Virus record (IMG/VR): IMGVR_UViG_3300035498_000956
Source: a virus
Taxonomy: Duplodnaviria > Caudoviricetes
Length of the DNA: 64,000 nucleotides
Reading direction: 5' to 3' (one strand)
The notes below the pieces were generated by a model that had not been told where the DNA came from, ran no database searches, and saw only the letters and a program-made list of their open reading frames with translations. Of the stretch, positions 2,410 to 57,076 are shown in pieces; position 1 is the stretch's first letter, and every line of letters begins with the position of its first letter. A program made the position numbers and the translations under genes.

Positions 2410-5400
2410 CGGTACAGCAATGAAAACCATCATTGCAAGATTTACAGAATTAAAAGAAAATGTATCTGCAGCAGATAGTGAATTTGATGATCTTGATTAT
2501 AATGATGTAGATACAGCATTAAAGTCTGTTGGTATTTCAATTAAAGATGCTAGTGGTCAATTTAGAGATCTAGATGATGTCTTTCTTGAATTGGCAGAAA
2601 AATGGGATACACTTGATAGAAATACTCAACGTTATATCGCAACTACCGCGGCGGGTAGTAGGCAACAGTCGAGATTTATTGCAATGATGAGTGATTATGA
2701 TAGAACACTTGAATTACAAGCAACAGCTTATGAGTCAACTGGACAATCAACTGTACAATTTAATAAATATCAAGATACTGTTCAATATAAAATTGAACAA
2801 ATTCAAAATACTTGGGAGCAATTAAGAGTTTCGTTATTGGATCAGGATGTTTATAAAGATGCTTTAGATTTAGGTAATAAATTATTAAGTGGGATTAAAA
2901 AAGATATTAGTATAAAAGATTTGGCATTTATTGCTGTAATCGGCTTAACAGTTGGTAAAAACTTTGTTTCTCAATTTATTAATGGCATGAAAACAAATAT
3001 TGGAACTGTAGCAGATGTTTTTAACAAACAGGTTACTCCTGCATTTAAAACAGCTGCAAGTACAGCTGGTAATTCTATTAATACAGGAATAGCGACAGTT
3101 TTAAGCAAAAGTAAGATAGGAACAAAAGTTAGTAGTTTAATTTTTTCTGATAATGCAAAAAAACAATTAGAGCAAAATCTTCAACAAGCAACAAGCGCAT
3201 TTAATCAACAAATGGAAAAAATTAATACTCAATTTTTAGAATTAACTAATAGACAAAAGAATCTTTTTTCTTTAGCTGATCAGCCTATTTCTGCTCAAGC
3301 ATTAACTGATTTTTATACTAAATTACAACAAGTTGGTTCTGTTACGGAATTAACAGAAACAGAAGTAAATGAATTATATAAAAAAATGGGTGGAACTGAA
3401 GAACTTACTGCTGGCACTGCAGCATATGATCAGTTCGTTGCAAAATTACAACAAATGGGAGTAGTTCTTCAGCAAGATATAACTAATGAGGAAAATACGA
3501 CTACAGCTTTACGACAATATATTCAAGCAGTCAGAGAAGGGTCAGCATCTAGTCAACAATTACAGCAAGCAACTCAAAATTTAAGTAATTCTTTTGGTGC
3601 TCTTGGTCCAGTAGTTAATAGTGCAGCAAGTGCAATAAAAGGTGCATTTAAATCTTCAATAGGATCTGCAATTACTAGTGGAATTATTACTGCTATTTCT
3701 ACAGGAGATTTTTCAACTGCTTTAAAGACAACTGGTTTAACTTTAGTAACAGGCATGATTTCTCAATTAGTTCCTCAATTTATATCTTTTTTAGGAAAGC
3801 AACTCGCCGCGTTTATCCCTACACTTATTCCTATATTATCAAATCCAGCCGCTCTAGCTGCTATAGCAATAGGAACAGTTGTAGTTGTTGGCTTAGGTGC
3901 ACTAATTTATAATTATTATAAGAAAAACAATGTATGGACTTCTTTATCTGAGAGCTTAGATGCAGAGATTTCAACTATGAAAAAAAATCTTGAAGATTTA
4001 AAAGAAGCTGCCGAAACTACTACATCTACAGCAAAAGCAGATCAACAAGCAGTTTCAACAATGGAGAGTGTAAAAAAAGAATGGGATGAATTAAATAATA
4101 AAATTAGTTTAACTGAGGATGAACAAGAAAGATACAATGAGTTAGTTGAAACAATAAATGATGAATATTCAGATACAGTTGCATATTATGATGAAATGAA
4201 TAATAAATTAATTATTAGTGAAGATTTGTGGAATCAGCAATTAGAAGATGCAAAAGAAATTGCGGAATTATCTCAAGCAATAGCTCTTGGCACTCAGAGT
4301 AATGTAAATGCAGAAGAATATGAACTTGAAAAAACAAAAAATCAAAAAGCTAAACTTCAATTAGAAGGCGGTTTTTATACTAAGACTAATGAGAATGGAG
4401 ATACTACATACACTACAGATATTTATGAGACAGGTACTTCTGCTGATTTTTCAGCTTTACAAGATGTTATCAATCAAGGATTAACAGATTATGATAGTAT
4501 TAGTCAAGCAATAAATGATAATTATTCGACCGCCATTGCCTCAGGTCGTATAGCAGCAGATGATAATAAAGCTGATGAAATTAATCAAATGTTAAAATTA
4601 TTTGACGATTATTATAAAGAGCATGGTACACAAGGAGAAGTTGATCTTTCTTATGTGCTGCAACAAATTTTAGATAATAATCAAGATGCGTTAGAATTTT
4701 ATCAACAAATATTAGACGAGCAAGAGGGAATTGATGACATTATTAATGAAGCAGATGAAGCGTCTAACCAACGATATATAGAATCACAACGTCAAAATTA
4801 TCAAAGTAATATTACTGCAACAGTAGGAGCAACGCAAGCTAGTATGGTAACAAATACTGATGCAGCTGATGAGCTTATTGAATTACAACGTTTATTACTT
4901 GAAGATGATCAAGAGGCAATAGAAAAAACTAGTCAATATATTAATGAAGAATTTAAATCATTAACCAATTTAGATCCAGCAGCACTCTCTGAAGGCTCAG
5001 ATTTTATGTCATCATTAATAAATGCAGAAGATTTTTCGAGTGCGGCCGAAGCTGTAAACTTATCCGAAGAAACATTATCAGCAATCACAGGCTTAACTGC
5101 AGATACATTTGTTAACATGAGAGGAGATGCAGAACATTTAGCAAAACTTATTAGAGATAATACATTTACTCAGTATATTGAAAATGATATGCAAACTGCA
5201 GCAGAAGAAATTCCAGAGCAATTAGTTGATAGCTTTGCTGAAGTAAGTGAAAATATAAGCACAATGTCTCTTGATGAATACCAGCAAAGTATTCAAAAGT
5301 TAGAAGGTCAATATGGAGATGCTTATAAAGACAATATTGAATCTGCAGCTACTGTTGATTATGAACAATATGCAAATATGTTTTTAACACAGAATGAAGG

Positions 5401-56566: not shown

Positions 56567-57076
56567 TTAATTTTTTATATGATTATTATAAAATTCTTTC
56601 GCCGCGAAATATAGATCTTCTTTTGTATGATTATTATCAATGATGTAATCATATGAATAATTTTCTACGTTTTTATCTGCATCGTTATTAAATTTAGTAT
56701 CAGTTTTTCTATCAATAAAAATTGTTTCTGCTTTAAAATCATCAACAAAACGTTGTATTTCTTCAGGTTCTCTACAATGAATAAAAAGAGCTGTTGCATC
56801 TTGAATATATAAATTATGAATCATTTTGGAAATATTTTGATATGGTAAATCATTCCATTCAGTTAATAAATTTTTTAGATTACATAACATTTTTCTACTC
56901 TTTTCATTCTTTTCTCCATTCCAACCTAACATATCCATTGCTAATTGTTTAATATTATCAATAGTAGACATGATGTGAATATCTATTACTCCATCTTGTC
57001 TCGCACAATCTTGAACGTAATAACAAAATGTGTCTTTTCCTGCTGTTGCATATCCATTAATTACAAATATCTTCAT
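56567..57076 (-). CDS. Deoxynucleoside monophosphate kinase-like P-loop protein
   Basis: INGYATAGKDTF, WNGEKNEKSRKML, IHCREPEEI, YDYIIDN. Confidence 0.75.
   Translation of the reverse strand: MKIFVINGYATAGKDTFCYYVQDCARQDGVIDIHIMSTIDNIKQLAMDMLGWNGEKNEKSRKMLCNLKNLLTEWNDLPYQNISKMIHNLYIQDATALFIHCREPEEIQRFVDDFKAETIFIDRKTDTKFNNDADKNVENYSYDYIIDNNHTKEDLYFAAKEFYNNHIKN

Follow-up and report, generated by a model that had tools for sequence, protein, structure and literature searches.

The stretch analysed here, referred to as the window, comprises 64 kb of a 158 kb contig from a tailed phage (IMG/VR record IMGVR_UViG_3300035498_000956), and all counts for this phage cover the window only. The phage encodes a tape-measure protein, Dit, Pol III alpha, gyrase, NrdD, RecJ, Sak4, RuvC and a ligase, and the G+C content of the window is 30.8%. 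The subject of the analysis is the heptamer CGCSGCG (S denotes G or C) and the shorter palindrome contained in it, GCSGC. The heptamer is present in 16 copies, nine as CGCCGCG and seven as CGCGGCG, and all copies claimed in a preliminary description of the sequence were found at exactly the coordinates claimed. The reading frame given there was also correct: in 15 of the 16 copies the coding strand reads NNC GCS GCG (X-Ala-Ala), the exception being 23141, with TAT CGC GGC GAA (Tyr-Arg-Gly-Glu). The related words described at 10783, 11329, 16095 and 32167 are all present. The copies of both words are as follows:

496 to 63128: GCSGC palindrome, 81 copies (1.27 per kb) at 77 distinct loci, 74 genic and 7 non-coding; the core iterated word
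2647 to 2653: CGCGGCG, tape-measure gene, ACC GCG GCG
3805 to 3811: CGCCGCG, tape-measure gene, CTC GCC GCG
10171 to 10177: CGCGGCG, Dit-like tail gene, GCC GCG GCG
21494 to 21500: CGCGGCG, ATC GCG GCG
23141 to 23147: CGCCGCG, dUTPase-domain gene, the sole off-frame copy, TAT CGC GGC GAA
25112 to 25118: CGCCGCG, ACC GCG GCG on the coding strand
28042 to 28048: CGCGGCG, Pol III alpha gene, ATC GCC GCG
28909 to 28915: CGCGGCG, Pol III alpha gene, conserved EIAAG site, ATC GCC GCG
36094 to 36100: CGCCGCG, PhoH-like gene, GTC GCG GCG
36496 to 36502: CGCGGCG, PhoH-like gene, TCC GCC GCG
38495 to 38501: CGCCGCG, YorF-like gene, CTC GCG GCG
40744 to 40750: CGCCGCG, gyrA, GAC GCG GCG
46345 to 46351: CGCCGCG, TCC GCG GCG
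50421 to 50427: CGCGGCG, PAPS-reductase-like gene, TAC GCC GCG
53261 to 53267: CGCCGCG, CTC GCG GCG
56600 to 56606: CGCCGCG, dNMP-kinase-like gene, TTC GCG GCG

Synonymous codons were shuffled within each gene, with the protein and the codon usage kept, and in 1000 such shuffles CGCSGCG was found 0.47 times on average (standard deviation 0.71, maximum 4) against the 16 copies observed. This codon-preserving shuffle had been set beforehand as the refutation check for the proposed over-representation; it did not reproduce the counts and the enrichment stands. A stricter null, in which the context of each wobble base with the next two bases was also held fixed, matched the number of GCWGC words (W denotes A or T; 46.9 against 46 observed) yet yielded 0.74 heptamers, again with a maximum of 4. 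Pairwise wobble context was rejected as the sole cause, since it yields about a 2-fold effect only. The alanine codons of the window are GCA (524), GCT (393), GCG (133) and GCC (57), and among Ala-Ala codon pairs GCG-GCG was found 14 times against 1.2 expected and GCC-GCG 7 times against 0.5. The pairs GCA-GCA and GCT-GCT are not enriched, which eliminates slippage of tandem triplets or reuse of the same codon. The CGCSGCG signal is real and strong, it is a signal at the DNA level, and it is far above chance.

The core of the signal proved to be GCSGC, and the heptamer, put forward in the preliminary description as the over-represented word, is a local extension of this core. The genes of the window contain 74 copies of GCSGC against 22.6 in the codon shuffle, and the 81 copies in the 64 kb of the window amount to 1266 per Mb. 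Non-coding DNA contains 7 copies against 1.07 expected, with GCWGC at 2 against 2.2. Both in the window and in every relative compared, all three reading frames show an excess of GCSGC, of 4- to 15-fold in frames 1 and 2. GCWGC was counted 46 times against 71 in the codon shuffle of the window; outside the Enterocloster phages described below, the deficit of this word is confined to frame 0, where its z-scores and those of GCSGC are exactly equal in size with opposite sign; the deficit is therefore the arithmetic mirror of the shift of Ala-Ala codons to GCS-GCN. On the coding strand the words and their reverse complements behave alike (GCGGCG 7-fold and CGCCGC 16-fold, GCCGCG 8-fold and CGCGGC 9-fold, GCGGC 3.0-fold and GCCGC 3.9-fold), and therefore the effect is exerted on double-stranded DNA and not on translation.

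The over-representation extends to longer G/C runs. Runs of 3–4 are depleted and runs of at least 6 are enriched (87 against about 24), and besides Ala-Ala the long runs encode Gly-Gly (GGC GGC), Gly-Ala (GGC GCG), Arg-Ala (CGC GCG), Arg-Arg (CGC CGC) and Ser/Cys-Gly (AGC/TGC GGC). All heptamers made only of G and C, when pooled, were found 80 times against 11.5 (7-fold), with CGCSGCG enriched 33-fold and the remainder 5.8-fold on average. Words containing GGG/CCC, GGCC or CCGG show no such excess. The two very large tail genes at 11209–18102 and 58471–63999 lack the enrichment in the core word that almost all replication genes show (observed/null 1/1.3 and 2/1.8), and the second of them is also richer in G+C (35–40%); both facts would fit host-range modules that were acquired recently.

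Relatives were found through the polymerase (64–77% protein identity). They include three metagenomic phages of 100–140 kb, designated G001, G002 and G003, and the Enterocloster phages PMBT24 and CB473P1. The observed/null numbers of GCSGC were 150/46 in G001, 178/49 in G002, 151/47 in G003, 93/26 in PMBT24 and 86/29 in CB473P1, with 70/20 for the window in the same comparison, and in every close relative tested the word was enriched 3.2- to 3.9-fold. Dipeptides able to encode GCSGC were modestly over-represented in the window and in G001–G003 (1.2–1.5 times the number in amino-acid-order shuffles, against 1.0–1.2 times in controls). Genomes of G001–G003 (loci L022–L040) reach a coding density of 82–86%, from 59–63%, only when TAG is read as Gln. 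Among other relatives two (L049 and L050) need TGA read as Trp and one (L051) TAG read as Gln, and the window phage uses the standard code; close relatives in this group therefore differ in genetic code. Such differences match the phAss-1 group, and TAG-recoded relatives of about 136 kb were described in the phAss-1 paper, which does not mention palindromes (PMC10607447).

The core is shared, and the longer words built around it vary with the lineage. The dominant heptamers are CGCCGCC, CGGCGGC and GCGCCGC in G003, CCGCGGC in G001 and CGCSGCG in the window, where the lineage form is the C...G-flanked heptamer and not overlapping pairs of the core (GCGGCCGC). A 5' C flanks 41% of the half-sites in the window (9.9-fold), 25–29% in G001–G003 and 7% in PMBT24. 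Each lineage also avoids its own palindromes. In the window these are CCGG (1 against 10–12), RCATGY (0 against 22), GAATTC (1 against 13–15), TTCGAA (0 against 8) and ACATGT (0 against 11), with TCGA and GATC partly depleted; CCWGG and GATC are avoided in G001 and G002, CCGG, GGCC, GATC, CTAG and GTAC in G003, and GCWGC, GATC and CGCG in PMBT24. GCWGC was found 0 times against 65 expected in PMBT24 (loci L044, L009 and L045) and 4 times against 58 in CB473P1 (L046 and L047), and GATC 0 times against 64 in the 42 kb of PMBT24 examined. The GCWGC deficit of the Enterocloster phages is true avoidance and not the mirror effect, and the deficits of these two phages point to restriction of the TseI/ApeKI type and the GATC type in E. 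bolteae. CGCSGCG is this lineage's dialect of the shared GCSGC, a dialect shaped by the G/C tetramers that each lineage avoids. The neighbouring words GASGC/GCSTC are present at about 0.6 times the null in all five genomes (the window, G001–G003 and the part of PMBT24 examined), with 4 against 25 in PMBT24; this depletion may combine a restriction site (e.g. GACGC) with avoidance of the Shine-Dalgarno-like GAGG.

No excess of GCSGC or of long G/C runs was found in phage T4, Staphylococcus phage K, a Clostridioides phage, an unrelated faecal phage of 31% G+C or a Vequintavirus, and these five flat controls rule out a generic property of AT-rich genomes. Enterococcus phage EF1, a distant relative which the phAss-1 paper counts with these phages in one wider Pol III alpha group (PMC10607447), showed a weak signal (23 against 13.8), so the signature is not universal in this wider group and may depend on a factor specific to Clostridia hosts. 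Across 151 Clostridia genomes the ratio of CGCSGCG to the reversed word was 0.3–2.8, in comparison to 16:1 in the window, and the codon shuffle applied to 7 of them gave GCSGC at 0.8–1.6 times the null with no excess of long runs. Given the flat control phages and these Clostridia genomes, the signature is neither a generic AT-rich effect nor, as sampled, a host-wide process, and it seems to be limited to phage DNA. A scan of genome contigs with the PMBT24 lysin gave a single weak match, in Ruminococcaceae. In 50 kb of phage K (L014), Ala-Ala dipeptides were counted 2 times against 38 in amino-acid-order shuffles and GCWGC 0 times against 4, which suggests that this phage avoids GCNGC even at the protein level.

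The dynamics of the word were followed in pairs of relatives. At orthologous positions of the polymerase gene the heptamers are not conserved, and fixed cis-acting sites were ruled out on this basis, though GCS-GCN recurs at conserved Ala-Ala positions: at the EIAAG site it is kept in 5 of 6 sequences, with variable flanks. Over 100 kb G001 and G002 share 94% identity, and differences between them affect 29% of the G/C wobbles and 8% of the A/T wobbles, which indicates strong AT pressure. Between them, synonymous transitions from A/T to G/C that create GCSGC had taken place at 31/104 (29.8%) against 6.0% (odds ratio 6.6, p 8e-14), and creating transversions at 3/51 against 0.9% (p 0.01). Transitions from G/C to A/T that destroy the word were less frequent (17% against 32%, p 2e-5). 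The PMBT24/CB473P1 pair replicated both effects, with destroying changes at 24% against 41% (p 0.002) and creating changes at 21% against 7.5% (p 0.05). In both pairs creating changes are about 3–5 times commoner, and destroying changes about half as common, as comparable changes.

Gains were raised at positions 1, 2 and 3 of the pentamer, and the direction of the bias is shared by transitions and transversions and by all positions of the word. Since gains are raised and losses lowered, and the two are equal in number between G001 and G002 (34 each), GCSGC is at a stationary equilibrium with fast turnover. The bias seems to favour the product as such rather than to follow a single mutational pathway, which sets it apart from simple protection against decay; it may be weak selection or a drive by repair or gene conversion, probably with a mutational contribution besides. 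Strain variants of the window phage, 99.8–100% identical to it, provided 72 single-nucleotide polymorphisms, partly clustered as if imported by recombination and too few for a mutation spectrum; several of them extend G/C runs.

On balance we favour, at somewhat better than even confidence, the explanation that in CGCSGCG a highly iterated palindrome (HIP) with the core GCSGC has taken its most extreme local form, the core being kept by a substitution bias directed at its product. The clade concerned is that of large (about 100–160 kb), AT-rich siphoviruses of gut Clostridia-type hosts, carrying GCSGC at about 1–2 per kb and a Pol III alpha replicase, and including phAss-1-like and Enterocloster PMBT24-like phages. 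In these genomes GCSGC is written into any wobble positions, and to a slight degree any amino-acid pairs, able to hold it, as well as into intergenic DNA, and is held in dynamic equilibrium by biased substitution, creating changes being commoner and destroying changes rarer than comparable ones. The bias could arise from weak genome-wide selection for a word of double-stranded DNA that is read by a DNA-transaction factor conserved in the clade or, alternatively, from a repair or gene-conversion drive towards GCSGC, and would operate in phage DNA while leaving the host chromosome untouched. G/C wobbles beside the core are favoured too, so that long alternating G/C runs build up, and the runs that accumulate would depend on the G/C tetramers avoided in each lineage through host restriction. 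The window lineage tolerates CGCG, so that the core becomes flanked as C...G and gives CGCSGCG, mostly as NNC GCS GCG at Ala-Ala.

The word closely resembles a known system. In Cyanothece PCC 7822 the alternate HIP GCsGC, which no palindromic 5-mer of any cyanobacterium surpasses in over-representation, exists alongside two GCsGC-specific methyltransferases; HIPs, with HIP1 being GCGATCGC, reach densities of 1000–2000 per Mb, and their maintenance by a methyl-directed mismatch-repair ratchet was proposed (Elhai 2015, PMC4390886). The phage core word is identical to that of Cyanothece, palindromic and of 100% G+C, and its density of 1266 per Mb lies within the same range. It is found in genes, in any frame, and between them, has spread by point substitution and not by transposition, is over-represented beyond composition and codon constraints, and is approached by biased substitution. 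The differences are that the carrier is a virus and not a cyanobacterium, that the word is extended to lineage-specific G/C runs, and that the sampled potential host class does not have the phage word. The clade was also not found to encode a cognate methyltransferase: no match to PF00145 was found in G001–G003, and no methyltransferase family is shared by them. The HIP1-like signature proposed in the preliminary description was thus borne out in word, density, distribution and substitutional origin, but not in the methyltransferase correlate, and the phage GCSGC works like a HIP without being counted as a full member. A literature search that combined HIP with phage turned up no description of such palindromes in phage genomes.

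Several points weigh against the favoured explanation. No effector of GCSGC maintenance was found, and no methyltransferase is common to the clade, although in Elhai 2015 a cognate enzyme of this kind is what characteristically accompanies HIPs. The spacing of GCSGC sites in the window has no regularity (the variance exceeds the mean), and the heptamer positions, not being conserved, give no apparent sign of a site-specific function. The bacterial genomes tested in depth number only 7. The transversion evidence amounts to 3–5 events only. In addition, any SS_SS context, unless GGG/CCC would result, shows an approximately 3-fold rise in changes from A/T to G/C, and a context-dependent mutation bias would account for this no less well than selection.

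A more specific proposal, to which we give tentative and rather less than even credence, is that the drive is intrinsic to the phage: a DNA-transaction activity conserved in the clade would recognise GCSGC-type runs and bias fixation towards them, with no cognate methyltransferase involved. Such an activity could come, for example, from a nuclease of the repair or recombination machinery or from a DNA-binding factor.

The most serious competitor, though in our estimation an unlikely one, is context-dependent mutation bias only. The replicase and its proofreading would retain A/T-to-G/C changes beside G/C, cytosines in stable G/C runs would deaminate less, and G/C wobbles would coalesce into runs without selection or recognition of a word. 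The general rise of such transitions in SS_SS contexts (21% against 4–9%) is what this proposal predicts, several pentamers are favoured and not GCSGC alone (CCGCC, GCGCC and CGCGC), turnover is fast with positions not conserved, several strain polymorphisms lengthen the runs, and a Pol III alpha replicase is common to the clade. However, word-creating transversions are raised by the same factor as transitions, and loss rates are lowered simultaneously. Equally stable words that contain GGG/CCC or GGCC/CCGG show no enrichment. Nothing of the kind is seen in other AT-rich phages and bacteria, and EF1, a distant member of the Pol III alpha group, reaches only 23/13.8.

The preliminary description had named two genes of the window as candidate partners of the motif:

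46913 to 48010, minus strand: candidate amino-(N4/N6) DNA methyltransferase with the motifs YDYSCGFGA and SCPPF; homologs annotated PF01555
53467 to 53880, minus strand: free-standing Vsr/DUF559-fold nuclease, present in G001–G003 and not in the Enterocloster phages with the GCSGC signal

The methyltransferase open reading frame has no Pfam match of its own. It contains YDYSCGFGA as a motif I-like and SCPPF as a motif IV-like sequence, and members of its family are partly annotated as PF01555, the N6/N4 methyltransferases; the assignment was made from these motifs and from homolog annotation, there being no sequence match in PDB and a single-sequence fold having a predicted local distance difference test (pLDDT) score of 37. 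The gene adjoins gyrB/gyrA, likewise in related phages. The nuclease aligns with 23 homologs, with R42, D44, D61, H65, D86, R87 and K89 among the invariant residues, and its predicted fold has a pLDDT of 93. Its gene is part of an operon, overlapping its neighbours at the start and stop codons, and is conserved in G001–G003 at 44–56% identity. The identities given to both genes, an N4/N6-type methyltransferase and a Vsr-fold nuclease, were right, but the expected co-occurrence with the signal was not found, and neither of the two accounts for the core signal. G001–G003 have no homolog of the methyltransferase, and relatives that carry it show a GCSGC core of 2–2.5-fold with no excess of CGCSGCG or CGCG (observed/null 0/0.0, 0/0.3 and 2/0.5), that is, without the heptamer dialect.

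A ratchet built from these two enzymes, in which the methyltransferase marks the motif and the nuclease turns T:G mismatches into C:G, is improbable. Both genes are indeed present and of the kinds stated, the nuclease gene is conserved in G001–G003 and sits in an operon in the window, and its distribution parallels the preference for a C flank. Raised creating transitions and lowered destroying transitions are the prediction of very-short-patch repair of the Vsr/Dcm type, known by its footprints in enterobacterial genomes, of which a Vsr-fold endonuclease is the part found in the window phage, and creation of the C flank was somewhat raised between G001 and G002 (5/32 against 6%, p 0.045, and 3/28 in a second count; underpowered). 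However, the methyltransferase is of the amino and not the C5 type, and would produce no 5-methylcytosine and no deamination-derived T:G. No C5 methyltransferase (PF00145) was matched in G001–G003 or among the window open reading frames examined, about 94 kb of the phage beyond the window being outside the scope; of the other methyltransferase families PF01555 is confined to G001 and PF02086 to G002. In five genomes the counts of the T-containing neighbours GTSGC/GCSAC and GCSGT/ACSGC are 0.8–1.3 times the null, i.e. at expectation, although a relative null could mask a weak depletion, and transversions are biased as well. PMBT24 and CB473P1, which do not have the nuclease, keep both the GCSGC signal and the substitution bias, and by its PHROG matches the nuclease domain groups with homing endonucleases. 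The Vsr-fold nuclease may nevertheless act in the C-flank dialect, whose distribution it parallels.

Restriction avoidance, with GCSGC as its by-product, is a very improbable cause, although the same genomes strongly avoid other short palindromes and this shapes the G/C runs that are possible. Avoidance of GCWGC (TseI/ApeKI-type) and other sites would push Ala-Ala to GCS-GCN, in keeping with the GCWGC numbers of PMBT24, CB473P1 and the window and with the separate palindrome set avoided by each lineage. Yet GCSGC itself is enriched, which is the opposite sign, and outside the Enterocloster phages the GCWGC deficit is the frame-0 mirror. The 4- to 15-fold enrichment of GCSGC concerns frames 1 and 2, where GCWGC is not a synonymous alternative, and in non-coding DNA GCWGC is undepleted while GCSGC is enriched. 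With the junction context fixed the heptamer remains at 16 against 0.74, and in G002 the GCSGC excess (+129) is far above the GCWGC deficit (−34). The frame test ruled out restriction avoidance as the sole cause; it is a contributor in the Enterocloster phages.

A Chi-like signal, for protection or for recombination, addressed to a host enzyme of the AddAB/RecBCD type, deserves hardly any credence. Firmicute Chi sites are short and G/C-rich (AGCGG in Bacillus subtilis), and selection for Chi in lambda red gam is a classical precedent; GCSGC is likewise short and G/C-rich, has a density near 1 per kb, and is carried by linear, recombination-dependent phages with RecJ, Sak4 and RuvC. However, Chi acts in one orientation, whereas the coding strand is enriched equally in GCGGC and GCCGC and the set of words is palindromic as a whole, and the sampled Clostridia genomes show no over-representation. 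A translational preference for codon pairs (Ala-Ala, Gly-Gly and similar) is almost certainly wrong, since the single frame of 15/16 heptamers and the common identical pairs GCG GCG, GGC GGC and CGC CGC are outweighed by equal enrichment of the reverse-complement words on the coding strand, by enrichment in all three frames and in non-coding DNA, and by the lack of it for GCA-GCA and GCT-GCT.

Other features of the window were recorded as well. A second dispersed word, ATCAATAG/CTATTGAT, is present in 18 + 18 = 36 copies, 8 of them intergenic (e.g. at 737, 9696, 10329, 12227, 14804, 16202, 27828 and 31030), and in genes it reaches 24 against 7.4 in the codon shuffle (z 6.9); no enrichment of it was found in G001, G003 or PMBT24. 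The words CTCATGCAGA (19 copies) and CCCTCTGC (13 copies) and most copies of CTTCTGCA lie inside the repeat-domain tail gene 58471–63999, and these three reflect protein repeats and not dispersed signals. The DnaB-like helicase is split into open reading frames 32757–33500 and 33828–34946 with a gap of 330 bases, the Pol III alpha gene is intact in the window and divided into 2–3 open reading frames in several relatives (polymerase loci L002–L007), and several GIY-YIG/HNH homing endonuclease genes are present (42956–43663 and 48733–49281). The split helicase, the interrupted polymerases and the homing endonucleases together suggest heavy intron or intein traffic. A PAPS-reductase/PP-loop protein (49809–50771; PF01507, E 2.5e-19; phrog_424) is encoded in the nucleotide-metabolism block, and a DndC-like or IbrA-like function in DNA modification is conceivable.

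Short G/C-rich palindromes are targets of restriction and phages are expected to delete them. This clade does the opposite for one word, GCSGC, while other palindromes are still deleted. In cyanobacteria HIP1 and its alternates have remained unexplained for decades, the leading idea being a link to cognate methyltransferases. The upkeep of GCSGC in phages without a shared methyltransferase, and without the signal in the sampled host class, weakens that explanation and indicates a different cause, possibly linked to replication or recombination. The GCSGC signature is a strong compositional marker of this phage group, and it also explains the odd local codon use (GCG GCG, GGC GGC) in a genome of 31% G+C. 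Members of the clade, PMBT24 and the CB4xx phages, are cultured on Enterocloster bolteae, which makes experiments feasible. If the drive is indeed intrinsic to the phages, HIP-type palindromes would be a general phenomenon that viruses themselves can generate, and PMBT24 on E. bolteae would be a cultured system for testing the origin and purpose of HIPs.

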